Shown here: positions 2,691 to 44,808 of the stretch, in pieces
Numbering within the stretch: position 1 is the first letter of the stretch
Layout of the letters: each line of letters begins with the position of its first letter
From: an uncultured Syntrophaceae bacterium
GTDB lineage: Bacteria; Desulfobacterota; SM23-61
Assembly: GCA_964484485.1 (NCBI GenBank)
Contig: CAZAGD010000033.1
Location: 1,238-65,237 of the forward strand
DNA length: 64,000 nt
Direction: 5' to 3'
Notes under the pieces: model-generated
Seen by the model: only the letters and a program-made list of their open reading frames with translations
Databases searched by the model: none
What the model was told of the DNA's origin: nothing
Translations under genes and position numbers: made by a program

Positions 2691-2691
2691 A

Positions 2692-3636: not shown

Positions 3637-3706
3637 TAATTTGGCTTTAAAGGCTTAAATCACCTCAGTCCCGAAGGCTAGAGAGACTGAATGAGGAAAG
3701 AGAGGT

Positions 3707-4099: not shown

Positions 4100-4323
4100 G
4101 CTGAATAAAAAAGGATAGAAAAGATGAAATCATCTTTTAAACTAATCTGCGCAGAAGACCCTAAGATATTAGGAATTGAGAAAAAGAATGGAGATTGGGA
4201 TTAAAACGCATTAGCTGAGCACATAAAAAAATGTGCGGCCTGAAGAGTTTATAAAGAGCAATTAAAGAAGGATTTAGCTAAATTACTAAGGATAGGCTCC
4301 CATAAAAAGAAAGGGCGAGTAAA

Positions 4324-4557: not shown

Positions 4558-4639
4558 GAATAAAGAATTAAAGCAGTAATTTAGGGGAAAAAGCCATGCA
4601 TTTTTAATCTCTTCTCTTTCCCCAACTAATTATAGAAGG

Positions 4640-5360: not shown

Positions 5361-5965
5361 GCGGCGGCCGCGGCCACATTTTTTTTAATTGAAATTAAAA
5401 CTTTTTAAAGAGAAGCAGTGTAGGATGTTATAAAGGTCTCTCCCAAACCGGGAAACCTCCGCTTACCAGAATAAAGGTAAAAAAGCTAAAAATTAAATTT
5501 TTCCTTTTTTAAGAAATAAGCGAAAGAGACTCGGGCTTAAATTATCGGATTAGCGCAAATATATAAATGCTATTCGAAAAAATGAGTGCGCCATTATACC
5601 AAATCAGTCTTAAAAGATTAGAGATTAGGCTTTAAAATTTGATACCTAACTCAATAATGCTTTTCAAAGAAGATATAAGGCATAGTCAAGTTATAAGTTC
5701 AAGGATTACCTTTAAGCGCTGAGATTTTTCCCGGGATGAATTGAGAAAAAAATTTCTTAAAAAAAAGGGTTCTTCCTTAATTTTGGGGGATGCTTTGATA
5801 TTGTCCGCCATAAAAAGTCTCGTCTAATGGGCTATTATTAAGCCGGGTATTCAAAAAAAATTATTTTTCTATCAAAAAATAATGCTTGACAAGAAAAAAT
5901 TAGTAAGTTATGCTTATAAGTAAGATAGGTATTTAAGATTTAGATATTATGGTGGGGGTGGATGA

Positions 5966-6124
5966 ATGAAAAAGGAAGAGAAAAAATCGAAATCAGTAAG
6001 GTTGCAGGTTCAGCTTGACCCAGAGATAATGAGAGCATTAAGAAGAAGGGCAGCCGATGAATTAAAGACAGTCAGGAAATTAATAATTGAATGGGTGCAG
6101 AGCTGGTCTAAAGAAAAGAAATAG
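5966..6124 (+). CDS. small RHH/Arc-like putative DNA-binding protein (52 aa)
   Basis: ATG 5966 preceded by GGTGGGGGTGG; translation MKKEEKKSKSVRLQVQLDPEIMRALRRRAADELKTVRKLIIEWVQSWSKEKK has beta-strand then two helices typical of ribbon-helix-helix; below ORF-track cutoff. Confidence 0.35.
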   Translation: MKKEEKKSKSVRLQVQLDPEIMRALRRRAADELKTVRKLIIEWVQSWSKEKK

Positions 6125-6157
6125 GATTGGCGGGTGGGCCTGGAAAGGAGGTCCATA

Positions 6158-6280
6158 ATGAAAAAAAGAATAAAGAAAATATTAAGGGAAATCAAAGAGC
6201 AATGCCGTATTGTTATGGAGGATCGGCGGATAAAAGAGAACGATTGGATTGTGGCTCGATTGGGGTTGCATAATATTTAG
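6158..6280 (+). CDS. small basic protein (40 aa), possible partner of RHH ORF
   Basis: AAAGGAGG RBS 7 nt upstream of ATG 6158; MKKRIKKILREIKEQCRIVMEDRRIKENDWIVARLGLHNI. Confidence 0.25.
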   Translation: MKKRIKKILREIKEQCRIVMEDRRIKENDWIVARLGLHNI

Positions 6281-6474
6281 AGCTCTGCGATCTTGGGGAA
6301 AAAGAAGTTGAAAAAGATCCTTGAATAAAAAATTAATGGCGCCACCCGGAACCGGCTAAGGAACCAAGGAGCGCCCGGGCAGGCATGCCAATTAACTGGC
6401 CCACCCACCATTTTATTTATAGCACGGATTGATATGGGAGAGCAATAAAAAATGGAAAAAAATGGAGGTAGTCC

Positions 6475-7539
6475 ATGGGTGTTTATAAAAGGGGGAATGT
6501 TTATTACATAGATTATTATTTTGAGGGAAATAGGATTCGGGAGCGAGTGGGTAAGAATAAAAGACAAGCTGAGTTGGCTCTTGCTTCAAGGAAAGGGGAG
6601 ATTGCTCAAGGGAAATTTAATCTTGAGCGAGTAAAAAAGACTCCTTATTTTGAAGAATTTGCCAAGGAATATTTAGATTGGGCCAAAATCAATCATCGCT
6701 CTTGGGAAAGAATGGATGCAGTGCGGATAAAATGTTTATCGAATTTTTTTTCAGGGAGGCGCTTAAATGAAATCACGCCTTGGCTCATAGAGAAATTTAA
6801 ATCAGAGAGGAAAGATAAAGTAAAGCCGGCGACAATTAACCGAGAGTTGGCCGTGCTCTCGGCCATGCTTTCTCGGGCGATAGAATGGGGGAAGCTTAAT
6901 GAGCATCCTATGAAAGGTGGAAAGGTTAAAAAACTAAGAGAAGATGGCCATAAAGAAAAGATATTAACTGAAGAAGAAGAGAGTCGGCTTTTATCTGTGT
7001 GTAGAGGATGGTTTAAAGAAATGGTGGTTATAGCCTTAGATACCGGAATGCGTCTATCAGAGATAATTGAATTAAAAAAAGAGGATATTGACCTTAATAA
7101 TCATTTAATAAAAGTGAAACATACCAAAAGCGGCAGAGAGAGGAAAATTCCCTTAACTGAAAGAGTATTCTCCATACTGGCAGAGAGGATTAAAGAAGTT
7201 AAAGATTCGGAATTTATTTTTGCCAAAGGAAATGGAAATAAGTTATGGGCTGTAAGGAGTGCCTTTCTTAGGGCTTGTAAGAGAGCTGGTTTTGTTGGTT
7301 TGAGGTTTCATGATCTGCGGCATACCTTTGCTACTCGCTTAGTAACTTCCGGAATTGACCTGGCCACGGTGCAAAAATTACTTGGTCATGAAAATATTCA
7401 AATGACCTTGAGATATTCGCATCCAAGGTCTGAGGATATGAAGCGGGCCATAAAAATTCTTGAGAAGAATGCGGAGAGCAGTCACAAAATGGTCACAAAA
7501 GATGAAATGAAATTATTAAATCTTTGTATAACCCCTTGA
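6475..7539 (+). CDS. int: tyrosine site-specific integrase (phage integrase family)
   Basis: C-terminal catalytic motifs [11 protein letters not shown] and [14 protein letters not shown] (R-H-R-Y); N-terminal arm/SAM-like domain; ends 7 nt from tRNA 3' end. Confidence 0.9.
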
Positions 7540-7545
7540 AATTAC

Positions 7546-7622
7546 TGGCGCGCCCAGCCCGACTCGAACGGGCGACCTACGGATTCGTAGTCCGGCGCTC
7601 TATCCAACTGAGCTATGGGCGC
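7546..7622 (-). tRNA. tRNA-Arg (anticodon ACG)
   Basis: Reverse complement GCGCCCATAGCTCAGTTGGATAGAGCGCCGGACTACGAATCCGTAGGTCGCCCGTTCGAGTCGGGCTGGGCGCGCCA folds as cloverleaf: 7-bp acceptor, D-arm GCTC/GAGC, anticodon loop CTACGAA, T-arm GCCCG/CGGGC, encoded CCA. Confidence 0.9.
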
Positions 7623-28302: not shown

Positions 28303-29979
28303 TTAAAGTTTAGTTATTGGTTCATATTCCCCGAACACCTCCCGTAAAACATCGCATATTTCCCCCAAGGTGCAGTAAGCCCGCACACAGTCCAAGATAG
28401 GATACATCAAATTGCCATCACCTTGGGCCACTTGGCGTAATTCCTTTAAAGAACTCTTTACTTTTTCGCCATCTCTTTCTCGCCTTAATTCGGCCAATCT
28501 TCTGACCTGTACTTCCCTTACCCGGGGGTCAACCTTCAATAATCCTTTTGGCGGGGGCTCTTTGGTCTGAAACCTGTTTACCCCCACAATAACCCTTTCT
28601 CCACGCTCGATCTCCTTCTGATACCTGTAAGCGCTCTCCTGAATTTCCTGCTGGATATAACCTTTTTCAATCGCCGCTACTGCTCCGCCCAGTTGGTCAA
28701 TCTTGGCTAGGTAAGCGCTGGCCCTTTTCTCTATCTCCTCGGTGAGTTTCTCGATATAAAAAGAACCTCCCAAAGGATCTATGGTTTCGGCCACTCCTGA
28801 TTCATAGGCAATTAATTGCTGGGTGCGCAAGGCGATCTGGACCGATTGCTCTGAAGGTAAAGCCAAAGCCTCATCCATGGAGTTGGTGTGCAAAGACTGG
28901 GTTCCGCCTAAGACGGCAGCCAAAGCCTGCCAAGCAACCCGAATTATATTATTGAAAGGCTGCTGGGCGGTTAGTGTACACCCCGCGGTTTGGGTATGAA
29001 AGCGGAGCATTAAGGAGCGCGGATTGCGAGCATGAAACCTTTCTTTCATGATCTTGGCCCAGAGCCTGCGGGCCGCGCGGAATTTGGCTATTTCTTCTAA
29101 GAAATCAAGGTGAGCGTTGAAGAAAAAGGAAATCCGCGGGCCAAAAACATCCACGTCTAAACCGGCTTTCTGCGCGGCTTCCACATAAGCTATGCCATTG
29201 GCTAAAGTAAAGGCTACTTCCTGCACCGCGGTACACCCGGCCTCCCGCATATGATAGCCACTAATACTAATCGTATTCCAATTGGGGACTTTTTGGGCAC
29301 AATATTCAAAGGTATTCGTAATGATCCGCATGGAATGCTGAGGTGGAAAGATGTAAGTTCCCCGCGAGGAATATTCTTTTAAAATATCATTCTGGATGGT
29401 GCCGTTAAGCTGGTCGGGAGAAACCCCTTGTTTTTCAGCAACCACAATATACATAGCTAAAAGGATGGCTGCTGGAGCGTTGATGGTCATGGAGGTAGAA
29501 ACTTTTTCTAAGGGAATTTGGTCGAAGAGAATCTCCATATCCCGCACGGAATCAATGGCTACGCCCACTTTACCCACTTCTCCTTGGGCTAAAGGATGAT
29601 CCGAGTCATAACCAATTTGCGTCGGCAAATCAAAAGCCACGGAAAGACCTGTTTGCCCTTGATCTAAAAGATAGCGATAGCGTTTGTTCGTATCTTCAGC
29701 GGTGCCGAAGCCGGCGTACTGCCGCATGGTCCAGAAACGACCTCGATACATGGTGGGCTGCACGCCGCGGGTATATGGATATTCTCCAGGTAAGTTTAGA
29801 TTAGCTAGGTAATCCAATTCGGCAATATCCGCGGGGGTATAGATCCTTTGGATAGGTATGCCGGAAGTGGTCTGAAACTCCTTCTTTCTTTCTGGGTTTT
29901 TCACCAAAGACTTCTCCACCGTCTCCGTCCATTTTTTAACATTTTCTTCAATTTCGGCTATTTTTTTGGGGTCGAACAT
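28303..29979 (-). CDS. methylmalonyl-CoA mutase large-subunit catalytic (substrate-binding TIM barrel) domain protein; no B12-binding domain in this ORF
   Basis: Acyl-CoA mutase family N-terminal barrel motifs ([20 protein letters not shown]; [23 protein letters not shown]); 558 aa ends before cobalamin-binding domain. Confidence 0.85.
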
Positions 29980-30008: not shown

Positions 30009-31892
30009 TTAAAGTTTACTGCTCATCTTGGGCTTGCTTTTATCTTGGCTTTTCTTTTTAATCAATATTTCTTCTTCTTTTTCGGCCTTGGCTAAATCTT
30101 CGAACTTAATATCTAAGCCACAAACGCCAACAATTTGCCCAATTTTATCTCTAATAGGGGCCGAGACGGTTAAACATAAACGCCCAGTTATCTTCGAAGT
30201 ATACAGTTCACTCACGTGCACCTGTCCATCTTTTAAAGGTTCGATAAACCAGGAACGGTCAGAGTAGTCTTCATGTAAACCGACTATTTCATATTTCGCC
30301 TTATCCACCACTTGGGTAATATTCTTGGTGATCTTCCGTCCTTCTAAATCGGTAACGTAAGCGAATTGAATAAAGGGGTGGTCGGCCACTAATTTCAGCA
30401 AAAGGGGCTCAATTAGCTTCGGTTTCATAGACTTTAAAGGAGCAGCTTCAATAATTTCTTCTATAAGATGAGCAGCCATTTTATGGGCGCGGGTCTTGAT
30501 GCGGTCAAAATCCGAGACGAAAAACTCGGGCAGATGTTTTCGGGCTTGCCGTTCCATCTCGGTATGCGAAATACTGGTGACCCTGCCTTCGTTATACTGG
30601 TCCATCACCCATTTATAAATTTTAGCTATCCCGGGATGTCGTTTGTCTACCCTCTTTTCCGGTGGTAGCTTTAAGTGGGTGTTCACCCAATGGGCAATCC
30701 CTGCCAGGCCTGATTTGTCAGTAATGATAATGGACATTGGTCGTTTGAGAATCTTGGCGGTATTGAAGATATTATATATTTCCGCCGACTTGGCTAAAGC
30801 ATCTATATGGATGCCCGCCCCCGTAGTATTAAAATCCAGTCCTACCAAGGGATAATTGATGGGAATATGCACCCCCATCTCTCTTTCCGCGTATTGCGCG
30901 ATGTCGGTAATCACGGTAGTATCGATACCGTTTGTTTCTCCGCGCAAGGCAATGTACTCAATGATCAAGGCCTCCAAGGGCGTATTCCCCGTTCTTTCTC
31001 CCAACCCCAAGATGGCTCCATTAGCTGCTGCGCAACCATATAGCCAAGCCGTGGTGGCATTTATAAGCACTTTATGGAAGTCGTTATGCCCATGCCATTC
31101 TAAAAGTTCTCCGGGCACTCCTGCCTCATCAATCATGGTACGTACTAATTTGTCTACAGCGCGGGGCAAAGCTGCGCCCGGATAAGTAACTCCATAGCCC
31201 AAGGTATCGCAAAGGCGGATTTTGACCGGCATTCCACTTTTTTCCCGGAGCCTCATCAAGGCTTGGGCAAAAGGGACGCAGAACCCAAAGATGTCGGCCC
31301 GGGTTACATCTTCGAAATGACATCGCGGAATAATACCTGCGTCCAGGGCAGCTTCGACAATGTCCAGATATTCATCAAATACTTGCCTTCTTTTCTTGCC
31401 CAGTTTCAAAAAAATATGGTAATCGGAAACAGAAGTGAGGATACCTGTTTCTTTTAAGCCCATTTCTTTGACTAATTTTAGATCCTTTTTGTTGGCCCGG
31501 ATCCAACCCGTAATTTCTGGGTACGGATAACCTTTCTCTAAACATTTGGTTACCGCTTCTTGGTCGCGCTGGCTGTATAAAAAAAATTCTGTTTGCCTAA
31601 TTACCCCCTGCGGTCCCCCTAACTTGTGCAGCATGTCAAATAAATCTACAATCTGTTTGACGGTGAAAGGAGGTCGGGCTTGTTGCCCATCTCTAAAAGT
31701 AGTATCGGTGATAAAAAATTCTTTTGCCGGACAAAGAGGAATTATTTTGTGATCAAAATCAATCCGGCTTACTTCTTCATAAGGGAAAACTTCCCGTTGC
31801 AAATTTGGTTCGGCCACATCTTGTAAATCTAAGCGCCAAAATTTAGTATGTTCGTGGGTCAGCAACCGGCGTTCTTCATCCCACTTGGCCAT
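30009..31892 (-). CDS. DRE-TIM/HMGL-like 2-oxoacid:acyl-CoA condensing enzyme of long-form LeuA type (isopropylmalate/citramalate/homocitrate/Re-citrate synthase family) with C-terminal Cache/PAS-like domain
   Basis: DTTFRDGQQ, HFEDVTRAD, LCDTLGYG, HGHNDF...LGLGERTGNTPLE motifs; N-terminal PYEEV segment like long-form LeuA. C-terminal ~200 aa FAYVTDLEGRKI...DRSWFIEPLKDGQVHVSELYTSKITGRLCLTVSAPIRDKIGQIVGVCGLDIKFEDL matches Cache/PDC sensor pattern, not the LeuA dimer regulatory domain. Confidence 0.6.
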   Translation of the reverse strand: MAKWDEERRLLTHEHTKFWRLDLQDVAEPNLQREVFPYEEVSRIDFDHKIIPLCPAKEFFITDTTFRDGQQARPPFTVKQIVDLFDMLHKLGGPQGVIRQTEFFLYSQRDQEAVTKCLEKGYPYPEITGWIRANKKDLKLVKEMGLKETGILTSVSDYHIFLKLGKKRRQVFDEYLDIVEAALDAGIIPRCHFEDVTRADIFGFCVPFAQALMRLREKSGMPVKIRLCDTLGYGVTYPGAALPRAVDKLVRTMIDEAGVPGELLEWHGHNDFHKVLINATTAWLYGCAAANGAILGLGERTGNTPLEALIIEYIALRGETNGIDTTVITDIAQYAEREMGVHIPINYPLVGLDFNTTGAGIHIDALAKSAEIYNIFNTAKILKRPMSIIITDKSGLAGIAHWVNTHLKLPPEKRVDKRHPGIAKIYKWVMDQYNEGRVTSISHTEMERQARKHLPEFFVSDFDRIKTRAHKMAAHLIEEIIEAAPLKSMKPKLIEPLLLKLVADHPFIQFAYVTDLEGRKITKNITQVVDKAKYEIVGLHEDYSDRSWFIEPLKDGQVHVSELYTSKITGRLCLTVSAPIRDKIGQIVGVCGLDIKFEDLAKAEKEEEILIKKKSQDKSKPKMSSKL

Positions 31893-32550
31893 AAATTCCC
31901 CTAACTTTGGCGTTTCTTTTCTTGGAAATTCTGCGGGATAAATTATTTATCTGGCTCTGCACCAGAAAGTCAATTATTTCCTCTTTGCGAAAATACGGCT
32001 TTAAGATCCACCGACGCAAAACTCCGAAAACACCGCTGAAGACTAAGAAATTGGCTTCTAAAAAAGGGTCAAACGCCCCTGGCCCCAACTCACTAATCAA
32101 CCTTTGAAAATGATCAACAATTTCGAATTCTTTCTGCAAAATAACCTTTAAATAATCTTTTTTTACGTAACGCGCTTGCGTATAAGAAAGCATTACTTGA
32201 TCTTCCAATTCCATGGCTGCTTCCACAAAAGCTCGGTAATTAATTTTGAGCCGCGCCAAAGGGTCAGCTACCTGACAAGTCCTCGATCTAACTTTAGCAA
32301 AAAAATTAACCACATAATTTTCGAAAAAAAGATAGAGAATATCATCTTTGGAACTAACATAATCATAGATACTGCCCAAACTGAGACCTGCTTCGCGAGC
32401 TATCTCCCGCACGGTTGCTTTATGGAAGCCCTTCCTTTTGAATACTTGGATAGCTCCCGCAATGATTTGCCGCCTTTTTTCATCCACTAATTTGGCATCT
32501 TTAACTTGGGCTTTGATTAGCATAGGCGCCCTTGGCGAACGAATGTTCAT
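31876..32550 (-). CDS. TetR/AcrR-family transcriptional regulator
   Basis: N-terminal HTH VREIAREAGLSLGSIYDYVSSKDDIL; first gene of the long minus-strand array. Confidence 0.8.
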   Translation of the reverse strand: MNIRSPRAPMLIKAQVKDAKLVDEKRRQIIAGAIQVFKRKGFHKATVREIAREAGLSLGSIYDYVSSKDDILYLFFENYVVNFFAKVRSRTCQVADPLARLKINYRAFVEAAMELEDQVMLSYTQARYVKKDYLKVILQKEFEIVDHFQRLISELGPGAFDPFLEANFLVFSGVFGVLRRWILKPYFRKEEIIDFLVQSQINNLSRRISKKRNAKVRGIYGQVG

Positions 32551-32713: not shown

Positions 32714-32792
32714 TTTCCTGATGGTGAGAAACATTAAAACGGTTAGAAGGTAAGCCAGCTCTAAAGGCTTTGACAAATTCCCCCCTTGATGA

Positions 32793-33845
<1,053 letters not shown>

Positions 33846-33946: not shown

Positions 33947-36900
33947 ATGACTGTAAACCGCCAGTTGGAAGAAGTGCAGAAAGAATTAAGAGCCCGGGAA
34001 ATTCCCCAAGAAGTCCTTGAATCGGCCGCCCTCCAAAAGAATCTCCAAGAAACATCTGTGGCCCAGCTCCAAATTGATCCCAAATATGAAGTGCTCATAG
34101 AGACGGTAGAAGGTTATCGGGGCATTCAGAAAGCTGCCGAAACCTTGCTCTTTGAGTTGCATCATCCCTTTAAAAATTGGGAAATAATCTTGCGGGAAAT
34201 GCGCTCTTTTGCCTTAAAGTATTTTACCGCCTACAGCCGTCATCCTCGCGGGTCCCAAGCCATATCCGCCATTATTGATGTCTTTTTTGAGGCTATAAGC
34301 CAGGTTAACTCTGATAGCTTACAAATAAAAGCTATCGATTATTTGCTCAATTATTTGGAAAAGATCGTTAATGAGCTAAACGGCCAAAATCATGGCGAAA
34401 TTTGGCCGATATTGCAACTTACTTGTCAGCGTTTGGCTTCCCTTCCTGACCAGCAATTTTTTTATTTGGCTTCCAGCCATATCCCTTTAAAAAAGATCGG
34501 GCAGGCTTTATTGCTTAAACTCCCCGAAAATTCTTTTTTACCGGAATTTAATAATCTTTTCATGCGCAGCCTGAAAATTACCTACGCTTATTGGCTGCAA
34601 GAAGAAGATCCGCTCTGCTGGTTTGATAAAGCGGGATCTGCGCCAGTTCTGGGCGAGCAATTAAAATATCCAGATGTCCTCCATTTAATTTCTCATCAAC
34701 ACTTAAAGTCTCTGGTTCAAGAGTTAGAAAATTTTTCGGGCCAGGAAGAATTTAAAAGTAATGGCTCTCTGCAGCTTCTCCGTCATCTCTTGACCTTCCC
34801 TTCCTACTTAGACATAGTACGGGCTTACAAAGAAATTCCTCACCTTTGGCCTGCTCCGCAAACGGCGGAAAAAGAAATTCCTCTTTTAGAGAATAAAAAA
34901 ATATTAGCCCTCTTTAAAATAATGGAAATTCCCGGGCTAAAAGATATTCACGAAGAAACTTTAAGGGAAATTAATCATACGCTCGTGGAACTCATCCGCC
35001 AAGAACCGCCGGAACGGATGCGCGAATTTCTAATTAAGACTTTTTCCCTCCTCAAGTCCAGTATGGAAAATTACCCCCATACGGCCTTGCAGTGCATCCA
35101 AACCTTAGGCGCAGAAATTTTTAATCAAGGTTATAGCCCTTTGGTGGAAGTCTTCTTAGAGTTAGTCTTACATTTCGGTTTTCAATACCCTAATGTGCAG
35201 GGGGTGGACACAAATTGGCAGTTAATCTGCAATCCCTGCCATTTGCTCAATGTGCGGGTCTGGTTGGATATTATTGGCCGAAATCCGAAATGGTGTAGTA
35301 CGCTCCTTTCGGCCCTCATAATTAACTTAAAATTAGCAGGCATTTGCATAAGGGATACTGATCTTTTTCAAAAAGAAGTAAGCAAACTGCTCAATGCCGA
35401 AATTGAGCCCGTCTACAATTTAATCAAGCAATTAGCGAAATTATTTCCCGTATATTTCAACGAAATTGGGGCGGAAGGAGAATTACGCGAGGCTACCACC
35501 GAGATAGATGAAATTACTTATCGTAAGGATCTCCTCATTCATTTTCTCCGTAAACAAAGTCATGTGGAGAGTAGTAATCTCATCGAGGATTTCGTTAGGG
35601 AAATAATCCGTTTTTGGCGCTTAAGAGATAAAGAGGGGTTAAAGAATTTTCTACCGGCGGAGATTTGGGGAAAGATAGAGATTACCGGCCCTTTCATCGA
35701 TGAAGTTAATTATATCGTTCAAAAGATCTTTGCCGAGAAAAGGCTCCAGAGCGAAAAGGATCTTTTAGGTCTAACCGATCGTGAACTGTCCGCCTTTATG
35801 GCTGCCTTGCCGGATGTGGCGGAGACGGAAAAGAAACGGGTCTCTTTGTTAATCAAGATTTACCGGCTTATTAATCAGAAGTATAACTTAGGCTTTCAGG
35901 AAATTGCCGCCCATTTGCAGGAAGCTTCCCGCTGGGGCTTCGAGGGCTTGGATGCTCTTTTACGGGTTATCGAGCGCAACGACCCCGAAGAATGTCTGGA
36001 ACATATCTTGTCCTATCTGGAAAATTTGAAGAAAATTATTCTTTCCCCCCAAAAATTCGAAGCCCGGGAAGATATCTACCGCAAACGGCATATAGCAGCT
36101 GACATTCCCTCTCTGTATGGTCGCTATCGCGAGCGGAAATTCGATGCCTTAGGTTTAACTTTTCGTTTAGAAAATTTGGCGAATATCTATTTTGAAAGAC
36201 TCATCGACTCTTTAGATCTTTCCTTTATTACTCGGGCTACCTTTTTTAAAATCATCTCCTGTTTGCGTTATCTCATGCGGGCTATCGAATTAGATGGCAT
36301 CTTTTCGCCGCGGCTTAATACCCAGCTTATGCTCTTAGAAAAATCTTTAGAGATAAAGCGCTTCACTTTTATGCAGTACCTGGACATATTCCGCGGCTTC
36401 TCCGAAGGAGTTAAAGATGTCATTTCCGTTTATTATGTGAATGCCCATAAAAATAACTTGGAGCTTTTAATTTGGCAAATGGGTAAAAAGAATATTCTGC
36501 CCAAATATCTGCCCCCTTCCGCTGAAGAAATTGGCCCCCATGAGTTTGTCCATCAAATAGGTGAAAAATTTATTCGCGATCTGATCGCTAATACTTTTGG
36601 CCTGCAGTACTTGGATATTTTCTTGGCGCGAATTCAACAAACGCTGGCCGAGCAGAGAGAAACTTTGAACGAAGCTGACCTCGATTTGCTGATGACTTAT
36701 GACCCCAAAAAAGTATGTTGTTTAATCCACCATCCCAATCGCTTGACTAATGATCTAATTCATTTGGGGAGTAAAGGGTATAACTTAGTGGTCTTAGCTT
36801 CCGAAGGCATCCCCGTACCTCCCGGCTTTATTCTGACTACGGAAGTATTCCGCTGCCTAAGGATAATTGAACGTTATCGGCACGCCCACGACCATTTGGA

Positions 36901-38242
36901 ACGGGAAGTCCGCTTTGGCCTGCAGCAAATTGAAAAAGCCACCGGACGTGAATTCGGTAATCCGCAACGGCCGTTACTCTTGGCCGTGCGCAGCGGGTCC
37001 ACAATATCTATGCCAGGGATGATGGCCACTTTATTAAATGTGGGTATAAATGAGGAGATCGTAGAAGGGTTGATCCGCTTCACGGGGGAAACTTGGTTTG
37101 CTTGGGATAATTATCGGCGTTTTATCCAATCCTGGGGCATGTCTTATGGGATTGAACGGGAAGTTTTTAACGAGATCATGCGCCACTTCAAAGCTAAGTA
37201 CAGAGTAGAAAAGAAGAGACAATTCTCCGGGGAAGAAATGAAAGAAATAGCTCTAGCCTATCGCCGCGCCGTCGAAGAAAGACATATCACTATCTATGAA
37301 GATCCCTGGGCCCAATTACAAGTAGCCATTAAACAAGTCCTTTCTTCTTGGAATTCCATCAAAGCCAGGCAATACCGAGAAATTATGGGTATTTCCGACT
37401 ATTGGGGAACGGCGGTGATTGTGCAAGCGATGGTCTTTGGTAATCTCAGCCTCTCCTCGGGCAGCGGGGTAGTCTTCACGGCCCATCCCTACCGAAAAAT
37501 TAGACGGGTGGCCCTGTGGGGTGATTTTACTCCCGGCAACCAAGGGGAAGATATTGTCGGGGGCTTAGTCTCTACTTATCCCATCTCCAAAGAACAAAAA
37601 GAATTGGAGGGAAGGGAAGAAGACTTGGAGGAAGCCTTCCCTAAAATATATAAGCGTTTATTTGAGATTGCCAAAACATTAGTCTATGAGAAAAAGTGGA
37701 ACCCCCAAGAAGTGGAGTTTACTTTCGAAAGCCCAGAAGAAAATAGTCTATACATTCTGCAGACCCGCGATATGGTCTCAACTAAAAGGGAAAAATTTGA
37801 GGTATTTACACCCTCGCCCTCTCTGCAAGAGAGTTTTTTGAGTAAGGGAATTGGCGTAAGCGGGGGGGCCCTTTCCGGGCGGGTAGTATTTAACTTAGAA
37901 GAGATTCATCATTGGCGCAGGTTGGAGCCAACGACTCCGCTCATTCTTGTTCGATCCGATACAGTGCCGGAAGATATCCAGGAAATTTCCTTAACCAATG
38001 GGTTGCTCACGGCAAAAGGCGGCCAAACTTCTCACGCGGCGATCGTGGCTTTTGAATTGGATAAGACGGCCGTGGTAGGTTGCCGCGGTTTAATAGTTTT
38101 AGAAAATGAAGGAAGACTTTTTATTAATCACGTGGAAATAAAGAGAGGTGACTTCCTCAGCTTAGACGGTAGAAAGGGTTTAGTTTATTTGGGCAAGCAT
38201 GAAATTAAGGCAGAAGAAGATCTCCCCACTTTTTTAGTTTAA
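33947..38242 (+). CDS. 1431-aa multidomain protein: novel ~920-aa N-terminal region fused to PPDK/PEP-synthase-type ATP-grasp nucleotide-binding domain and phospho-histidine swivel domain; lacks the PEP/pyruvate-binding TIM barrel (putative dikinase-like phosphotransferase)
   Basis: Residues ~930-1230 match PPDK_N (GYNLVVLASEGIPVPPGFILTTEVF; LLLAVRSGSTISMPGMMATLLNVGINEE); residues ~1340-1420 match the PEP-utilising mobile domain (GGQTSHAAIVAFELDKTAVVGC); ORF stops right after the swivel domain. Confidence 0.6.
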   Translation: MTVNRQLEEVQKELRAREIPQEVLESAALQKNLQETSVAQLQIDPKYEVLIETVEGYRGIQKAAETLLFELHHPFKNWEIILREMRSFALKYFTAYSRHPRGSQAISAIIDVFFEAISQVNSDSLQIKAIDYLLNYLEKIVNELNGQNHGEIWPILQLTCQRLASLPDQQFFYLASSHIPLKKIGQALLLKLPENSFLPEFNNLFMRSLKITYAYWLQEEDPLCWFDKAGSAPVLGEQLKYPDVLHLISHQHLKSLVQELENFSGQEEFKSNGSLQLLRHLLTFPSYLDIVRAYKEIPHLWPAPQTAEKEIPLLENKKILALFKIMEIPGLKDIHEETLREINHTLVELIRQEPPERMREFLIKTFSLLKSSMENYPHTALQCIQTLGAEIFNQGYSPLVEVFLELVLHFGFQYPNVQGVDTNWQLICNPCHLLNVRVWLDIIGRNPKWCSTLLSALIINLKLAGICIRDTDLFQKEVSKLLNAEIEPVYNLIKQLAKLFPVYFNEIGAEGELREATTEIDEITYRKDLLIHFLRKQSHVESSNLIEDFVREIIRFWRLRDKEGLKNFLPAEIWGKIEITGPFIDEVNYIVQKIFAEKRLQSEKDLLGLTDRELSAFMAALPDVAETEKKRVSLLIKIYRLINQKYNLGFQEIAAHLQEASRWGFEGLDALLRVIERNDPEECLEHILSYLENLKKIILSPQKFEAREDIYRKRHIAADIPSLYGRYRERKFDALGLTFRLENLANIYFERLIDSLDLSFITRATFFKIISCLRYLMRAIELDGIFSPRLNTQLMLLEKSLEIKRFTFMQYLDIFRGFSEGVKDVISVYYVNAHKNNLELLIWQMGKKNILPKYLPPSAEEIGPHEFVHQIGEKFIRDLIANTFGLQYLDIFLARIQQTLAEQRETLNEADLDLLMTYDPKKVCCLIHHPNRLTNDLIHLGSKGYNLVVLASEGIPVPPGFILTTEVFRCLRIIERYRHAHDHLEREVRFGLQQIEKATGREFGNPQRPLLLAVRSGSTISMPGMMATLLNVGINEEIVEGLIRFTGETWFAWDNYRRFIQSWGMSYGIEREVFNEIMRHFKAKYRVEKKRQFSGEEMKEIALAYRRAVEERHITIYEDPWAQLQVAIKQVLSSWNSIKARQYREIMGISDYWGTAVIVQAMVFGNLSLSSGSGVVFTAHPYRKIRRVALWGDFTPGNQGEDIVGGLVSTYPISKEQKELEGREEDLEEAFPKIYKRLFEIAKTLVYEKKWNPQEVEFTFESPEENSLYILQTRDMVSTKREKFEVFTPSPSLQESFLSKGIGVSGGALSGRVVFNLEEIHHWRRLEPTTPLILVRSDTVPEDIQEISLTNGLLTAKGGQTSHAAIVAFELDKTAVVGCRGLIVLENEGRLFINHVEIKRGDFLSLDGRKGLVYLGKHEIKAEEDLPTFLV

Positions 38243-38318
38243 CCTTTACCCAGAAGGTTTATAGCCATTGAATTTTCCCAGAAAATTTTGGATATAAAAA
38301 TAAACAGGGAGGGTATAG

Positions 38319-39611
38319 ATGAATAGCCAGTTAAAGGTGGAGTTTGTGGAGAAAGAAAATAAAAAGAGTTCTTTGAAGTTGGGCATAAACGGTCTGGGGC
38401 GCATCGGCAAATTAACTCTTTGGCATCACGTAGCGCGGGGATATTTTGCGGAATTGATCGTAAATATAGGGCGGGAGGCTGGAAGAAGTCTCCAGGATGT
38501 AGCAGACTACATAGTTCATGACAGCACTTACGGTCATTTAGCTAACTATCTTTTTGGATATAAGGGTGGGCGAGTTATTGAGAATCTTAATGAGGAACAT
38601 GGCACGATGTTAGTTAATGGAGTGCCCGTGACCATCCTGCGCCGAGATCGTAATCCAAAAGATTTGCCATGGAAACAAATGCAGGTGCCCATAATAGTGG
38701 AGGCTACGGGCAAGTTTTTGGACCCGACCGCTCCACCAGATTTTAAAAATGGTTCTATCAAGGGACACTTAGCTGCCGGCGCTCAAAAAGTGTTGGTTTC
38801 TGCTCCTTTCAAGATCAAAGATAAATCTCTGCCTATGCCTGAAGAAGCAATTACTATGGTCATGGGCATAAACGACCACCAGTATCAAGCGCTCAAGCAT
38901 AATATTATCTCGGCCGCTTCTTGTACAACCACTTGCTTGGCTTTTATGGTTAAACCGCTCCTTGATTATTTTGGGGCGGATAGGATTTTAAGTGCCTCCA
39001 TGGTCACCGTGCACGCCGCCACTGGTTCCCAGGAAGTTTTAGATCGTCTTCCTGATCCCAAAGCGGATGACCTTAGAAAAAACAGGTCTATTATGAACAA
39101 TATAATCCTCACCTCTACTGGAGCAGCTAAAGCCTTGGCTTTAGTCATTCCCGAAATGAAGAAAATCGGGTTTATTGCTGAATCGGTGCGCATTCCTACT
39201 AATACCGGCTCTTTGATAGTCTTGGTGGTAAATATTCAGGATGAAAACTTAGAAAATCCCATAAATCGAGAAAAAATCAATCAAGTTTATCAGCGCGCCG
39301 CGGCCACTTATATGCAGAAATACCTTTGCTTTAGTGAAAGGCAAAACGTATCTTCCGATATAATTGGCACTCCCTTTGCGGCGGCCATTATCGAGGGAGC
39401 GGAAACCCATACACGCACTGCCCATATTTGCGTGGATCTGGCCAAGATTCCTGGACTTCCCAAAGAAATTTCTGCACCAAAAGGCTCTTGCCTCGTTGAA
39501 ATCCCGGTCACTCAAGCTGTCGTTTACGGTTGGTACGATAATGAATTGGGCAGCTATACCAATATGTTGGGAGACTTAACCGTCAAAGTGGCTGAAGAAC
39601 TCCTTCTTTAA
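38319..39611 (+). CDS. divergent GAPDH-family dehydrogenase paralogue (430 aa) with N-terminal extension and large insertions
   Basis: GINGLGRIGK NAD motif, SAASCTTTCLAFMVKPL catalytic Cys, VHAATGSQ, WYDNELGSY; about 95 aa longer than canonical gap. Confidence 0.6.
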   Translation: MNSQLKVEFVEKENKKSSLKLGINGLGRIGKLTLWHHVARGYFAELIVNIGREAGRSLQDVADYIVHDSTYGHLANYLFGYKGGRVIENLNEEHGTMLVNGVPVTILRRDRNPKDLPWKQMQVPIIVEATGKFLDPTAPPDFKNGSIKGHLAAGAQKVLVSAPFKIKDKSLPMPEEAITMVMGINDHQYQALKHNIISAASCTTTCLAFMVKPLLDYFGADRILSASMVTVHAATGSQEVLDRLPDPKADDLRKNRSIMNNIILTSTGAAKALALVIPEMKKIGFIAESVRIPTNTGSLIVLVVNIQDENLENPINREKINQVYQRAAATYMQKYLCFSERQNVSSDIIGTPFAAAIIEGAETHTRTAHICVDLAKIPGLPKEISAPKGSCLVEIPVTQAVVYGWYDNELGSYTNMLGDLTVKVAEELLL

Positions 39612-39846: not shown

Positions 39847-42057
39847 TTGGATATGGAACCAGCAAGCCAAAAAATGGGGGCAAAAGGAGCTAATTTGCCA
39901 TTAAATCCTTTTAAGGCGGCGCTAAAAGAAACGACTGATCTCGCCCTCTTCGTGCGCACTTCCAGTGAAACTATTTCCGACTGGAATAGGCAGAGAATTG
40001 TGGATGCTCTCTTAAGAGAGACGAACATTGCCCAAGAGGTGGCCGAAAAAATAAGCCGCGAAGTGGAAGAACAAATCATTTCTTCGAAGATCTCTTTAGT
40101 TACCGCTCCTTTGATTCGCGAACTGGTGGATGCTAAACTAATCGAATATGGCCTGGAAGAAGCACGGAAAAAGCACACCCGTTTGGGAGTCCCGCTTTAT
40201 GATGTTGATCAGCTTATCCTCCATCCCAATCGCGAGAATGCCAACGTTCCCCATGGCCCCGAAGCTACTAATCTTACTTTGGCCGAACGCATAAAAAAAG
40301 AATATGCGCTCCTCAATGTTTTTTCTCAGGAAATTGGCGATGCCCATATGCGGGGAGATATCCACCTCCATGATTTAGGTTTTATTGACCGCCCTTACTG
40401 CTCCGGACAATCTTTAGAATATATTAAAAAATTTGGCCTCAATCTTCCCAACTCTCTTTCTATGGCCAAACCGGCTAAACATCCAGAGGTCTTATTGGCC
40501 CACATGGTTAAGTTTGCGGCCGCTTTGCAAAGTCATTTTGCCGGGGCCATCGGTTGGGATGCAGTCAATCTATTCTTTGCTCCTTATTTAGTAGGGCTCA
40601 GTGATCGGGAGATACATCAATTAGCCCAGATGCTTATTTATGAATTTTCCCAACAGGCCGTGGCCCGGGGAGGCCAAGCCATTTTTACGGACATTAATCT
40701 TTATTGGGAAGTACCTAAACATTTTGAAAAAGTTATGGCCATCGGTCCTGGAGGGGAATTTACGGGAAAAACTTATGCGGAATATGCACCCGAAGCGCAA
40801 AGATTCGTTTGGGCCCTTTTTGATGTTTACCGCGAAGGAGATGCCGTAGGTAGGCCCTTCTTCTTTCCCAAACCTCTGGTGCACATTACGGAAAAATTCT
40901 TCCAGACCCCAGGCCATTTAGACTTCTTAGCCCATATTTGTGAAGTGGCGGCCGAAAAAGGGAATACTTACTTTGTTTTTGACCGGGGGAGCACGGCCAA
41001 GGTTTCCGAATGCTGTCGGTTGAGTTTCAAATTAGAAGAAGCCGACTTAGAAGATGCCCAATATCCTTGGCGGATGCGCTATTGTGCTCTGCAGAATGTT
41101 ACGCTGAACTTACCGCGTCTGGCCTATCAAAGCGGCGGCAGCGATGACCAGCTTTTTAATAAGATTGCCCAAGTTTTTAATATAGCTGTGCAGGCTCATC
41201 TGCAGAAGAAAGCCTTCTTAGAGAGATTATTGGCCTTGGGAGCAGATGGTCCGTTAGCTCTGCTCACCATGAATAAAGATGGCCTCCCTTATTTGCGGCT
41301 GGGGCGAGCCACTTATTTAATCGGCATGGTGGGCCTTAACGAAATGGTGCAAATCCACTTGGGGAAGCAACTCCATGAATCTGACGAAGCCTTGAAATTT
41401 GGGTTGAAGGTAATTGCTTATATGAAACTCTTGGCTGACAAAATGAGTCGGCAATATAATATGCGCTTCGTGTTAGAACAAACACCTGCAGAATCGACGG
41501 CCTACCGTTTTGCTAAGCTTGATCTGCGCGACTTTTCTCCGCGGGCGGGGTATATTGTCAAAGGTGATATTTCGCGGGGCGAAATTTACTATAGCAATTC
41601 TACCTACCTAAATGTCGGCGCCCCCCTGAACCCCATCGAGCGGGTGCGCAAAGAAGGTCTTTTCCACCCCTTGATAGAAGCAGGTGCTCTAACTCACCTT
41701 TGGTTGGGGGAGGCGCGGCCGTCTAAAGATTCCTTGGCCAACTTCATCATTAAAGTTTTCCGCAATTCGCAAAATGACCAAATCGCCTTTTCACCAGAAT
41801 TTACGGCCTGCCCTGATTGCGCCAGAACATCCCGTGGTCTCCAAGCAAAGTGTCCCTACTGCGGTTCGGCAAATGTGGAAGGAATAACGCGGATAACCGG
41901 TTATTTTACCAAGATCTCCAGTTGGAACAAGGGCAAATTAGGAGAATTAAAGGACCGCTTCCGCAATCAAAATTATTTCTTAGAAAAAGATGGGGGAGTA
42001 GCTAAAGATAATCGTCCTTGGTCGTTTCGAGAAGAAACTTCCAGAACCTTCGTCTAA
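39847..42057 (+). CDS. nrdD: anaerobic ribonucleoside-triphosphate reductase (class III RNR)
   Basis: N-terminal ATP-cone (NRQRIVDALLRE), C-terminal Zn ribbon CPDCARTS...CPYCGS and glycyl-radical motif TRITGY. Confidence 0.85.
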   Translation: MDMEPASQKMGAKGANLPLNPFKAALKETTDLALFVRTSSETISDWNRQRIVDALLRETNIAQEVAEKISREVEEQIISSKISLVTAPLIRELVDAKLIEYGLEEARKKHTRLGVPLYDVDQLILHPNRENANVPHGPEATNLTLAERIKKEYALLNVFSQEIGDAHMRGDIHLHDLGFIDRPYCSGQSLEYIKKFGLNLPNSLSMAKPAKHPEVLLAHMVKFAAALQSHFAGAIGWDAVNLFFAPYLVGLSDREIHQLAQMLIYEFSQQAVARGGQAIFTDINLYWEVPKHFEKVMAIGPGGEFTGKTYAEYAPEAQRFVWALFDVYREGDAVGRPFFFPKPLVHITEKFFQTPGHLDFLAHICEVAAEKGNTYFVFDRGSTAKVSECCRLSFKLEEADLEDAQYPWRMRYCALQNVTLNLPRLAYQSGGSDDQLFNKIAQVFNIAVQAHLQKKAFLERLLALGADGPLALLTMNKDGLPYLRLGRATYLIGMVGLNEMVQIHLGKQLHESDEALKFGLKVIAYMKLLADKMSRQYNMRFVLEQTPAESTAYRFAKLDLRDFSPRAGYIVKGDISRGEIYYSNSTYLNVGAPLNPIERVRKEGLFHPLIEAGALTHLWLGEARPSKDSLANFIIKVFRNSQNDQIAFSPEFTACPDCARTSRGLQAKCPYCGSANVEGITRITGYFTKISSWNKGKLGELKDRFRNQNYFLEKDGGVAKDNRPWSFREETSRTFV

Positions 42058-42121
42058 GATGTAAAATGATAACTTATAAACTAAGAGAAAATTTTCATGG
42101 GCCGAAAGGAGGGGAAAAGAA

Positions 42122-42370
42122 ATGACGCTCTTTGTCAAAGAAGGATGCGCTAAGTGTGAATATGTGAAAAAAAGCGTCGATTTGGCTAAGTTAGGAGTCA
42201 AAGTGGAAGTGTTAAGTCCGGACAACCCAGATTCCTTAGCCCATTTGGCCTGGCACGAATTAGTAAAAGTAGCCGAAACCCAAATGCCTATCTTAGTCTT
42301 GGATGACTCTTCTTCTCTTACGGGAGCCATACGCATAAAGAATTATCTCCTTGCGCTGAGTCAAAATTAG
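42122..42370 (+). CDS. glutaredoxin-like small redoxin (CxxC) associated with nrdDG
   Basis: 82 aa, EGCAKCEYVKK CxxC motif, thioredoxin-fold pattern. Confidence 0.55.
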   Translation: MTLFVKEGCAKCEYVKKSVDLAKLGVKVEVLSPDNPDSLAHLAWHELVKVAETQMPILVLDDSSSLTGAIRIKNYLLALSQN

Positions 42371-42407
42371 GAAGAAATTTTTGTCAATTATTTAACTCCA
42401 AGGACAT

Positions 42408-43190
42408 ATGGCATATTCAATCAAAGGGTTTTTAGAAACTTCTTTTTCCGATTGGCCGGGGAAAGTGGCCGCTGTTCTTTTTCTCCCCTATTGTAACTTT
42501 CGTTGTCTTTATTGCCATAATTACGAGCTTATTCTTCATCCGGAAAAATTTCCCGACTTCCCCCTTTTAGAAATCATTAAAAAAATTTCCTTAAACCGCG
42601 ATTGGATTGATGGCGTCTGCCTCACTGGGGGAGAACCAACCATCCATCGCTGGCTCCCCGCGCTCCTCCGTTTTTTAAAAGAAAAATTGGGGCAGGATAT
42701 GCCTATTAAGCTGGACACCAATGGTTCCGCGCCCCAAGTCTTGGAAAAACTTATTCAAGAAAAGTTAGTAGATTATGTGGCCATGGACTTGAAAGCGCCC
42801 TTAATCGTAGAGCGCTACGAAGAGGTGGTGGGTGTGTCTCTGGGTGAAGAGGGCTTAGGCAACATTAAAAAAAGCATAATGACCCTCCTTTCCCAGAAAG
42901 TTGATCATGAATTCCGGACTACTATAGTTCCTGCTCTTCTCCAAGAAAAAGAAATTTATGAAATGGCCCGAACAATTAAGGGCGCGCAACGTTATACTCT
43001 GCAAAATTTTAATCCTCGCCAAACTTTAGCGGAAAATTTGCGAAACTGCAAACCTTTGGATGAACTTACTTTGCAACGGCTGCAGAAGAACGTTACGGAA
43101 ATAATCAGGGCGAATAATTGTCCGGATAAATCCCCAATTAAGCAGGAAGATATCAGTCTAAATAAGTTATTTATCTCTTACGCAAAGTAA
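42408..43190 (+). CDS. nrdG: anaerobic ribonucleotide reductase activating protein (radical SAM)
   Basis: CNFRCLYCHN CxxxCxxC radical-SAM motif; position after nrdD. Confidence 0.8.
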   Translation: MAYSIKGFLETSFSDWPGKVAAVLFLPYCNFRCLYCHNYELILHPEKFPDFPLLEIIKKISLNRDWIDGVCLTGGEPTIHRWLPALLRFLKEKLGQDMPIKLDTNGSAPQVLEKLIQEKLVDYVAMDLKAPLIVERYEEVVGVSLGEEGLGNIKKSIMTLLSQKVDHEFRTTIVPALLQEKEIYEMARTIKGAQRYTLQNFNPRQTLAENLRNCKPLDELTLQRLQKNVTEIIRANNCPDKSPIKQEDISLNKLFISYAK

Positions 43191-43210
43191 TTGGGAAAGG
43201 CAACTTATAT

Positions 43211-43789
43211 ATGAAAGAGGCCATCAGCAGGATAATCCAGGAAAGCGTTGATTTAAAATTGCGCTTTGGGCAAAAATACGGAGAAACGCTGAGCCAAGTA
43301 ATTAAGCTCATCGTGGAAGCTTTTAAAGCTGGTAATAAACTCCTTCTTTTTGGCAATGGAGGGTCGGCTGCGGATGCTCAACACCTGGCCGCCGAGTTTA
43401 TAAATCGTTACCTGATTGAACGTCCCCCTTTACCGGCCATTGCTTTGACTACCGATACTTCAGTACTTACCAGCATTAGCAATGATTATAGTTTTCAAGA
43501 TGTTTTTGTAAAGCAGATCAAAGCTTTGGGAAAAGCTGGAGATGTGGCTATAGGTATTTCCACCAGTGGCGCATCGGTCAATGTGATCAAAGGCATAAAA
43601 TTGGCCAAGGAAATGGGCCTAAAAACGATTGCGTTAGTCGGCGGAGATGGGGGAGAACTGGCCAAGATCGCTGATTTAGCTTTGATCGTGGAGTCGACCA
43701 GCACGCCGCGTATTCAGGAAGTGCATATTACCATCGGCCATATTATCTGCGAAATGGTTGATCTCATGCTTTTCCAAAAACCCCTTTAG
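43211..43789 (+). CDS. gmhA: SIS-domain sedoheptulose-7-phosphate isomerase (GmhA-like)
   Basis: GNGGSAADAQHLAAEF and SIS fold motifs. Confidence 0.75.
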   Translation: MKEAISRIIQESVDLKLRFGQKYGETLSQVIKLIVEAFKAGNKLLLFGNGGSAADAQHLAAEFINRYLIERPPLPAIALTTDTSVLTSISNDYSFQDVFVKQIKALGKAGDVAIGISTSGASVNVIKGIKLAKEMGLKTIALVGGDGGELAKIADLALIVESTSTPRIQEVHITIGHIICEMVDLMLFQKPL

Positions 43790-43800
43790 GGAGGCTGCTT

Positions 43801-44808
43801 ATGGCGGAGCTGAAAAAGGGGTGGTCCATTAAGCCTATTTCTTTAGCCCGTGTGCGTACTTCTTCCCTTAAGGGGAAAAAGAGCCTGGTTAACACGCAGG
43901 ACTTCGCTCATCCTCTGCAGGCGCCAGCCACTTTTAAAGAATTTTTGGCCAATCTTCCCCGCATCTTGGCGGCCCAGGATTTTCGGGAATTAATCGCCCG
44001 CCTTAAGAAAGCCTACCAAAAAAACAGGCCTATTCTCTTAGGCATGGGCGCTCATCCCATCAAAGTAGGCTTAAGTCCTTTAATAATTCAGCTTATGGAA
44101 AAAGGGATCCTCCACGGAGTAGCGATGAATGGGGCGGGCATTATCCATGATTTTGAAATCGCTTTGGCGGGAAAAACATCGGAAGATGTGGCGGCCGAAA
44201 TCAGCAGCGGATCATTCGGCATGACCAAGGAAACTGGGAAATTTCTCAATCAGGCCATAAAAGAAGGATGGGCTAAAAGATGGGGTCTGGGGTACGCGGT
44301 GGGCGAAATGATCAGGCGAGAGAAATTCCCCTTTGGGGAGATGAGTATCACTGCTGCCGGAGTACGGATGGGTATTCCTGTAACTGTCCATGTGGGGATC
44401 GGTACAGATGTTATCCATATGCACCCCGAAGCCCAGGGGGAAGCCATAGGGGGAGCAAGCCACATAGATTTTCGCCTTTTCGCCAAATTAATTTCCCAGC
44501 TGGAAGGAGGAGTTTATTTAAACCTGGGTTCGGCAGTAATTTTGCCTGAAGTCTTCTTGAAAGCCTTGACTTTAGCGCGCAATTTGGGGTACCGGGTAAA
44601 AGATTTTACAACCGCTAATATGGATTTCATTCCTCATTACCGCCCTTTAACTAATGTCGTTCGCCGCCCCACCCTGACTGGTGGAAAGGGGTTTCACTTT
44701 ACCGGACACCATGAAATAATGTTTCCTCTTTTAGTGGCCGCCCTTTTAGAAGAAATCACCCCTATGGAAAAAACTCCGGCGCTTAAAAAATCTCGGCGGG
44801 CTAAATAA
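43801..44808 (+). CDS. conserved hypothetical protein (335 aa)
   Basis: ORF with good coding character; no family confidently recognised from memory. Confidence 0.35.
   Translation: MAELKKGWSIKPISLARVRTSSLKGKKSLVNTQDFAHPLQAPATFKEFLANLPRILAAQDFRELIARLKKAYQKNRPILLGMGAHPIKVGLSPLIIQLMEKGILHGVAMNGAGIIHDFEIALAGKTSEDVAAEISSGSFGMTKETGKFLNQAIKEGWAKRWGLGYAVGEMIRREKFPFGEMSITAAGVRMGIPVTVHVGIGTDVIHMHPEAQGEAIGGASHIDFRLFAKLISQLEGGVYLNLGSAVILPEVFLKALTLARNLGYRVKDFTTANMDFIPHYRPLTNVVRRPTLTGGKGFHFTGHHEIMFPLLVAALLEEITPMEKTPALKKSRRAK

Follow-up and report, generated by a model that had tools for sequence, protein, structure and literature searches.

In Bacillus, labour is divided between two glyceraldehyde-3-phosphate dehydrogenases (GAPDHs), GapA and the NADP-preferring, gluconeogenic GapB (PMC9145139). 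At the coenzyme-specificity site Asp32 prohibits the binding of NADP+, substitutions of this residue by Ala, Gly, Leu, Lys or Pro lead to dual specificity, and a lysine at the position equivalent to Thr34 aids NADP+ use (PMC9145139). In Corynebacterium glutamicum GAPDH the substitutions D35G/L36T/T37K/P192S, corresponding to positions 32, 33, 34 and 188, permit the use of NADP+ (PMC9145139). Position numbers of this kind refer to GAPDH from Geobacillus stearothermophilus (formerly Bacillus), the reference sequence used here matching PDB entry 1GD1 at 333 of 334 positions. Here we describe a long-form class-I GAPDH encoded in a 64,000-nucleotide stretch of DNA (the window; positions 1,238 to 65,237 of contig CAZAGD010000033.1) from an uncultured Syntrophaceae bacterium. 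The protein keeps the complete set of catalytic residues, but Asp32 is replaced by Ile. With a probability of about 0.6 we regard it as a phosphorylating class-I GAPDH whose main task is gluconeogenesis and which can use NADP(H), probably in preference to NAD(H).

The gene of the long GAPDH (38319..39611, +) translates without internal stops into 430 residues and contains both Pfam domains of the family, Gp_dh_N (54.7 bits, cutoff 31.7) and Gp_dh_C (94 bits, cutoff 24.4), each above threshold. A strong Shine-Dalgarno motif read from the sequence, GGGAGGG (38307..38313, +), lies 5 nucleotides before the ATG and backs the annotated start and thereby an N-terminal extension of 16–18 residues; the initial annotation had noted this extension but had put its length at 20. 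The class-I fold is established by the predicted model (AF2; 41 sequences in the alignment), which has a mean predicted local distance difference test score (pLDDT) of 81.8 and a predicted template-modelling score (pTM) of 0.82. Foldseek comparison of this model with the PDB retrieves class-I GAPDHs only, with target-normalised template-modelling (TM) scores of 0.83–0.90 at 28–33% identity; the top matches are Synechococcus NADP-dependent GAPDH, Thermus GAPDH, C. glutamicum GAPDH (the wild type and NADP-engineered mutants) and Bacillus subtilis GapB. The class-I equivalog model TIGR01534 aligns over its full length (profile positions 1–329 of 330), interrupted by the insertions, but the 337.6 bits obtained do not reach its cutoff (367.2).

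All residues required for phosphorylating GAPDH chemistry can be located. The motifs SAASCTTTC (residues 198–206) and HAATGSQ (residues 232–238) are present as the initial annotation had reported, and with the fold, the Pfam domains, Cys202 and His232 in hand its description is borne out: the protein is a diverged paralogue of GAPDH fold that has kept the catalytic Cys and His. Ser201-Cys202-Thr203 (38919..38927, +) correspond to S148-C149-T150, comprising the catalytic cysteine and part of the Pi site, and are invariant in 41 aligned sequences. His232 and Thr235 (39012..39023, +), equivalent to the catalytic base H176 and to T179 of the Ps site, are invariant in the family alignment. The anion-binding sites are completed by Arg253-Lys254-Asn255-Arg256 of the S-loop (positions 194–197), Thr267-Gly268 (T208-G209) and Arg291 (R231), encoded within 39075..39191 (+). 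Invariant in the alignment of long GAPDHs are S148, C149, T150, H176, T179, R194, R197, T208, G209, R231, Y311, N313 and E314, and the catalytic residues are complete in the window protein and in all 40 close relatives. The only change is a conservative one, from Arg195 to Lys, which occurs throughout the family and is itself nearly invariant. Both the Ps site (T179, R231) and the Pi site (S148, T150, T208, G209 and the basic stretch 194–197) are thus kept.

In contrast, the coenzyme pocket is changed, a point that the initial annotation had missed. From the GxGxxG motif to position 32 the long GAPDH aligns without insertions or deletions, and Ile50-Gly51-Arg52 (38466..38474, +) take the places of Asp32-Leu33-Thr34 of the G. 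stearothermophilus enzyme. An aspartate at position 32, present in most canonical representatives, is found in none of the 30 tabulated members of the clade, with one degenerate member (P0152) having an Asp one column earlier, at position 31. Asn49, Gly51 and Arg52 are at least 90% conserved. The absence of Asp32 from every clade member examined, together with a conserved arginine two residues further on, looks like the result of selection and not of drift. The S-loop is 3–4 residues longer than in canonical GapA.

Compared with the canonical gap product of the window, the long GAPDH contains 94 extra residues, close to the roughly 95 of the initial annotation, in nine segments (residues 1–16, 49–52, 77–88, 138–145, 169–177, 225–227, 248–250, 317–325 and 368–397). 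Insertions occur in both the NAD- and the catalytic-domain regions, as had been claimed; the insertion given as KFLDPTAPPDFKNGSIKGHLAAG is found at residues 132–154, and the motif WYDNELGSY (residues 405–413) is indeed preceded by a long insertion, which is the largest of all (residues 368–397; 39420..39509, +). This segment directly follows a conserved ETHTRT motif (residues 362–367). In the AF2 model the final two strands of the catalytic-domain sheet (356–372 and 393–406) are lengthened by it to form a long β-hairpin, the loop between them being of lower confidence. Across 40 family members the internal insertions come close to the core in conservation, with majority fractions of 0.53–0.89 where the core has 0.82; conservation is lowest in the N-terminal extension (0.26), which some relatives, such as P0114, do not have. 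None of the PDB structures matched by sequence or by fold using Foldseek carries these insertions. According to the model they are structural additions, forming the long β-hairpin and enlarged surface loops. They adjoin Phe99 of the adenine pocket (residues 134–146), the S-loop and the edge of the catalytic sheet, and we infer that they probably affect the coenzyme pocket as well as oligomer, subunit or partner contacts.

Taken with the intact anion sites, it is highly probable that the long GAPDH is a phosphorylating enzyme acting on glyceraldehyde 3-phosphate (G3P). Cys202 would form the thioester and His232 would act as the base, after which phosphate would attack at the conserved Pi site, resulting in the interconversion of G3P and 1,3-bisphosphoglycerate. 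The remodelled adenosine pocket, with Asp32 replaced by Ile, a following Gly-Arg pair, and insertions next to Phe99 and in the S-loop, suggests that NADP(H) is accepted and probably preferred. We infer an enzyme that would cooperate with PGK and TPI, mainly in the gluconeogenic direction, in hosts presumed to grow mostly autotrophically or on organic acids; by analogy with the characterised enzymes, the balance tips slightly in favour of an NADP(H)-preferring, gluconeogenic GAPDH. The canonical, Asp32-containing gap product of the same cluster would then be the NAD-linked isoenzyme, in an arrangement comparable to GapA and GapB of Bacillus.

The long GAPDH belongs to a distinct, widespread but uncharacterised subfamily outside the curated families; all of the closest relatives found for it in reference genomes come from Thermodesulfobacteriota. 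More than 120 protein clusters with 62–100% identity and lengths of 405–436 residues were retrieved, which excludes a chance open reading frame, and an exhaustive search of representatives adds approximately 30 full-length clusters with 29–60% identity and the same insertions. In a neighbour-joining tree calculated from shared columns, without support values, the 30 insertion-bearing sequences form one exclusive clade. Conservation of the family is strong, the mean column identity being 66% across orders. The best 80 species-level genome loci all belong to Thermodesulfobacteriota ('Deltaproteobacteria' in older annotation), with hosts including Thermodesulfobacterium, Thermosulfurimonas, Thermodesulfatator and Caldimicrobium as well as Desulfobulbaceae, Desulfocapsaceae, Desulfurivibrio, Desulfarculaceae and Syntrophaceae. 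The nearest relative, with 97% identity, is from a Thermodesulfobacteriota metagenome-assembled genome. In databases the long form carries generic names; full-text literature searches found no paper on it, and a proteomics paper on Dissulfuribacter thermophilus contains nothing specific to it.

Below every curated subfamily cutoff and without a class-II match, the protein falls outside the known curated clades, in agreement with the divergence proposed in the initial annotation; the archaeal- or plastid-type placement that would have contradicted that annotation is thus not observed. The score is 195.6 bits for the GapB-like model PRK07729 (cutoff 546), 181.4 bits for the cyanobacterial/plastid-like PRK07403 (cutoff 616) and 124.1 bits for PRK08289/NF006139, which describes a 480-residue GAPDH (cutoff 431). 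The Epd models TIGR01532 (121 bits, cutoff 530.55) and PRK13535 (124.2 bits, cutoff 539) score it lower than they score the canonical gap product of the window; Epd was rejected on these scores and on the retained Pi site. An ArsJ-associated GAPDH was rejected as well, with NF033735 at 180.9 bits (cutoff 450) and no arsJ-like gene among the three upstream and four downstream genes scanned. The class-II (archaeal) GAPDH models TIGR01546 and PRK04207 give no match at E ≤ 0.01, and this class was discarded. The same holds for GapN, the non-phosphorylating enzyme of the ALDH superfamily, because Pfam identifies Gp_dh_N and Gp_dh_C only and no Aldedh domain. The features of the NAD-specific GapA type (EC 1.2.1.12) are not found either, as Ile50 occupies the Asp32 position and the S-loop reads LDRLPDPKADDL instead of containing Leu/Phe187-Pro188.

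In the window the long gap gene is preceded by two genes on the same strand. The first gene of the cluster is a canonical NAD-type gap (32841..33845, +; 334 residues), whose product has Asp32 and Phe187-Pro188, scores above the TIGR01534 cutoff (434.7 bits) and shows 33% identity to the long form; this gene lies 4.5 kb upstream of the long gap gene. It is separated by 101 nucleotides from a dikinase-like gene (33947..38242, +; 1431 residues), which in turn is separated by 76 nucleotides from the long gap gene. A consensus scan reveals a promoter-like site upstream of the canonical gap gene (32770..32798, +; TTGACA, 17 nucleotides, TATTCT, extended -10 TG), a possible promoter for the three genes, and a scan of the 101- and 76-nucleotide intergenic gaps finds no terminator-like site. 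Because the terminator and promoter scans both yield hits at background frequency, an operon structure is suggested but not more. Rfam identifies one tRNA only in the window and no riboswitch near the gap cluster. Downstream of the long gap gene follow nrdD (with ATP-cone), nrdG, gmhA and a GSU2086-family gene (39847..44808, +). The adjacency of nrdD is kept in the closest relatives (L002, L006–L015); more distant genomes have pgk-tpi at this place.

The gene neighbourhoods of the family follow two main patterns. Among 72 species-level loci with enough upstream sequence, the dikinase-like gene is linked to the long gap gene in 40, being directly upstream in 36 and overlapping the long gap gene or fragmented in four. 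A canonical gap gene precedes the dikinase-like gene in 21 of 31 such linked loci, and pgk-tpi follows in about one third. The remaining 32 loci have no dikinase-like gene within 10 kb and show the order long gap-(GNAT)-pgk-tpi(-secG); pgk is directly downstream in 28 of them, followed by tpi and, where checked, secG. The long gap gene occupies the gap-pgk-tpi position in Desulfobulbales. Many genomes keep an Asp32-type gap gene in the same cluster as the long form, which argues for a division of labour. Thermosulfurimonas dismutans (L017) has the cluster gap-dikinase-long gap-pgk. Its genome paper lists the long form, probably TDIS_2022, simply as an ordinary GAPDH, one of three, of which TDIS_2022 and TDIS_2024 flank a gene that is not mentioned, with pgk being TDIS_2021, and describes an autotroph without sugar fermentation for which the pathway was inferred to run towards gluconeogenesis (PMC4911364).

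Seen from the side of the dikinase-like gene, using 80 metagenome loci found with the N-terminal region of its product, a canonical gap gene is directly upstream in 48 of 69 loci and a long gap gene directly downstream in 21 of 56. At least one GAPDH gene is adjacent in 36 of the 48 loci that are informative on both sides, the canonical form being commoner than the long form. The order gap-dikinase-long gap persists over a range of dikinase identities from 40 to 100%; one contig labelled Desulfobulbaceae has canonical gap-dikinase without an adjoining long gap gene, and on another contig the dikinase-like gene stands alone. These arrangements are explained most simply by an ancestral cluster that comprised canonical gap, dikinase, long gap, pgk and tpi and was split in some lineages, such that the dikinase-like gene stayed with canonical gap and the long gap gene with pgk-tpi. 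The cluster repeatedly includes a small gene for a GNAT acetyltransferase (L004, L016, L017, L019, L022 and others; e.g. 11202..11654 of L004). In Desulfobulbales this gene is found between long gap and pgk, in Thermodesulfobacteria upstream of canonical gap or the dikinase-like gene; it is absent from the window. A glycogen-synthase-like gene (GT5 + GT1) is located two genes upstream of canonical gap-dikinase on a Desulfobulbaceae contig (L087, 4294..5901) and may hint at a link of this pair to polyglucose metabolism.

The dikinase-like protein is the most novel element of the locus, more so than the long GAPDH. It consists of an α-solenoid of approximately 930 residues followed by a region that aligns to residues 23–515 of pyruvate phosphate dikinase (PPDK), covering the nucleotide-binding and phospho-His domains and including a conserved TSH motif; the phosphoenolpyruvate (PEP)/pyruvate domain is missing. 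For the first ~930 residues Pfam returns no domain but only a sub-threshold Xpo1 match. They are predicted to be an all-α solenoid (pLDDT 80.7) and hold many invariant polar residues. Foldseek matches of the solenoid are of the generic HEAT/exportin kind, with TM scores of at most 0.21, and for that reason give no clue to the substrate. There are 935 homologues; the best 120 carry the annotation PEP synthase or PPDK and, where complete, have lengths of ~1410–1450 residues.

Several points weigh against an NADP(H)-linked, gluconeogenic role of the long GAPDH. The proposed coenzyme preference is drawn by analogy from residues at the coenzyme site. Some NADP-dependent GAPDHs retain Asp32, and enzymes with a single D32 substitution are less active. 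The long GAPDH misses the TIGR01534 cutoff by 30 bits. In the 64-kb window pgk and tpi are absent and nrdD follows the long gap gene; where pgk does adjoin it, this alone is no proof of the role, because in E. coli epd is also located upstream of pgk. In T. dismutans a third GAPDH gene is present (PMC4911364). Finally, single D32 substitutions in E. coli GapA leave the NAD+ activity in place and produce only weak NADP+ activity (PMC9145139).

The last of these observations favours the alternative that survives best, although we consider it unlikely: that the long GAPDH is a plain isoenzyme with the same NAD-linked function as the canonical copy, in which the insertions change only stability or oligomerisation and the loss of Asp32 has not led to a physiologically relevant switch to NADP. 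The complete catalytic and anion-site set would suit such an enzyme, and so would its housekeeping gap-pgk-tpi position in Desulfobulbales. However, the family-wide loss of Asp32 with its conserved downstream arginine has the appearance of a selected trait, and a second copy with Asp32 is maintained in the same cluster in many genomes.

A further proposal, compatible with the chemistry favoured here for the long GAPDH but rather improbable in itself, is that the α-solenoid of the dikinase-like protein docks the long GAPDH, and possibly canonical Gap too, with the insertions serving as docking surfaces and the phospho-His domain either exchanging phosphate with the 3-phosphoglycerate/1,3-bisphosphoglycerate pair or regulating the GAPDH. 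The conserved order of the three genes over a wide range of dikinase identities, the GAPDH genes adjoining three quarters of the loci informative on both sides, the missing terminator-like sites, the lack of a PEP/pyruvate domain and the resemblance of the solenoid to typical protein-binding scaffolds all point in this direction. Against the proposal, long forms whose gene is not linked to the dikinase-like gene (as for P0114) show the insertions with the same degree of conservation; moreover, the dikinase-like gene also occurs alone or with canonical gap only.

An altered substrate, as put forward in the initial annotation from the adjacency to the dikinase-like gene, appears quite improbable. 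The candidates would be erythrose 4-phosphate, an aldehyde without a phosphate group, or an intermediate that the dikinase-like protein binds or produces. The adjacency itself is real at the level of the family (40 of 72 loci), the paralogue is divergent enough to fail the TIGR01534 cutoff, and its insertions flank the active-site region. A new substrate does not follow: in the alignment of phosphate-site residues which that annotation recommended, S148, T150, T179, R194, K195, R197, T208, G209, R231 and N313 are all in place, giving no indication of a substrate change. The scores of the Epd models (121–124 bits against cutoffs of 530–539) are below those of the canonical gap product, the same long form is found in gap-pgk-tpi operons in the 32 loci that have no dikinase-like gene nearby, and the dikinase-like gene is paired more often with canonical gap.

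More speculative still, and with a similarly small chance of being correct, is the idea that the two GAPDHs and the 1431-residue dikinase-like protein constitute one module, in which the solenoid would dock GAPDH through the insertions of the long form as the interface, and the phospho-His domain would shuttle phosphate between ATP (or AMP and pyrophosphate) and 3-phosphoglycerate/1,3-bisphosphoglycerate. If true, this module would, driven by the dikinase, either bypass phosphoglycerate kinase or partner it in the lower glycolysis/gluconeogenesis of sulfur-metabolising Thermodesulfobacteriota. A non-catalytic or moonlighting pseudoenzyme is a negligible prospect for the window protein, which like its 40 close relatives keeps every catalytic residue, even though the distant members P0162, P0166 and P0171 have lost Cys149 and/or His176. 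These three sequences have lost phosphate-site residues in addition but retain the insertions, and judging from their sequences they probably represent pseudoenzymes that arose from the long GAPDH.

Another GAPDH isoform will not surprise a specialist; of interest are how large and well conserved the subfamily is, that it occupies a housekeeping position, and that GAPDH and dikinase-like genes are paired. GAPDH ranks among the most thoroughly studied enzymes, and yet an uncharacterised form of 405–436 residues fills the gap-pgk-tpi position across orders that include sulfate reducers, sulfur disproportionators and relatives of cable bacteria. Should it use NADP(H), metabolic models of these autotrophs would need a different gluconeogenic redox balance, and the family would be a natural case of coenzyme switching by replacement of Asp32 with a hydrophobic residue combined with an arginine at position 34. 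That the pairing of GAPDH genes with a dikinase-like protein devoid of the pyruvate domain is conserved points to a step or control in lower glycolysis that has yet to be described.

Elsewhere in the window, positions 1..7622 form an integrated element of low G+C content (36–39%). It encodes a protein with DUF3987 and a helix-turn-helix domain (361..1527) and a restriction endonuclease of the ThaI type (2058..2690), whose gene overlaps that of an N4/N6 DNA methylase (2641..3636); the gene of a tyrosine integrase (6475..7539) abuts a tRNA gene (7549..7622, -). A 627-residue fusion of an HMGL-like, carboxyltransferase/aldolase-type TIM barrel with a C-terminal Cache/PDC sensor-like domain (30009..31892, -) is an unusual combination; its gene adjoins those of a methylmalonyl-CoA mutase (28303..29979, -) and a TetR regulator (31876..32550, -).

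Comparison with known GAPDHs places the long form near several of them without matching any. The 480-residue GAPDH of PRK08289 is also longer than the canonical enzymes, but its additional residues are found at the N-terminus, so that the long GAPDH matches from profile position 119 onwards, and it does not have the internal insertions. Epd (GapB of E. coli) is likewise a GAPDH-fold paralogue; unlike Epd, the long GAPDH keeps the phosphorylating Pi site, and the two families occur in different taxa. Synechococcus Gap2 (PDB entries 2D2I and 3B1J) provides the top Foldseek matches (E ~1e-30, target-normalised TM 0.86–0.88), and the cyanobacterial and plastid Gap2/GapA enzymes are anabolic and use NADP(H), as proposed for the long GAPDH. 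These enzymes keep Asp32 and bind the 2'-phosphate differently, by means of Thr33, Ser188 and Arg77. They differ further in having none of the insertions, in the PRK07403 score below cutoff and in the absence of a CP12 context at the long gap gene. With NAD-dependent GapA (1GD1) the long GAPDH shares the fold (target-normalised TM 0.89), the catalytic residues and the anion sites, whereas identity to canonical GapA (1GD1 and the window gap product) is 30–33% and the 94 extra residues, the change of Asp32 to Ile and that of Arg195 to Lys set it apart. Among solved structures the best sequence match is B. subtilis GapB (PDB entry 8WWZ; 157 bits). GapB is only ~32% identical, contains ~340 residues and none of the nine insertions, and its family is separated from the long GAPDH by the PRK07729 cutoff and by a distinct clade in the tree. 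Yet both have the class-I fold, Cys149, His176 and the phosphate sites, both lack Asp32, and each coexists with a NAD-type, GapA-like paralogue, in an anabolic role that for the long form is proposed here.

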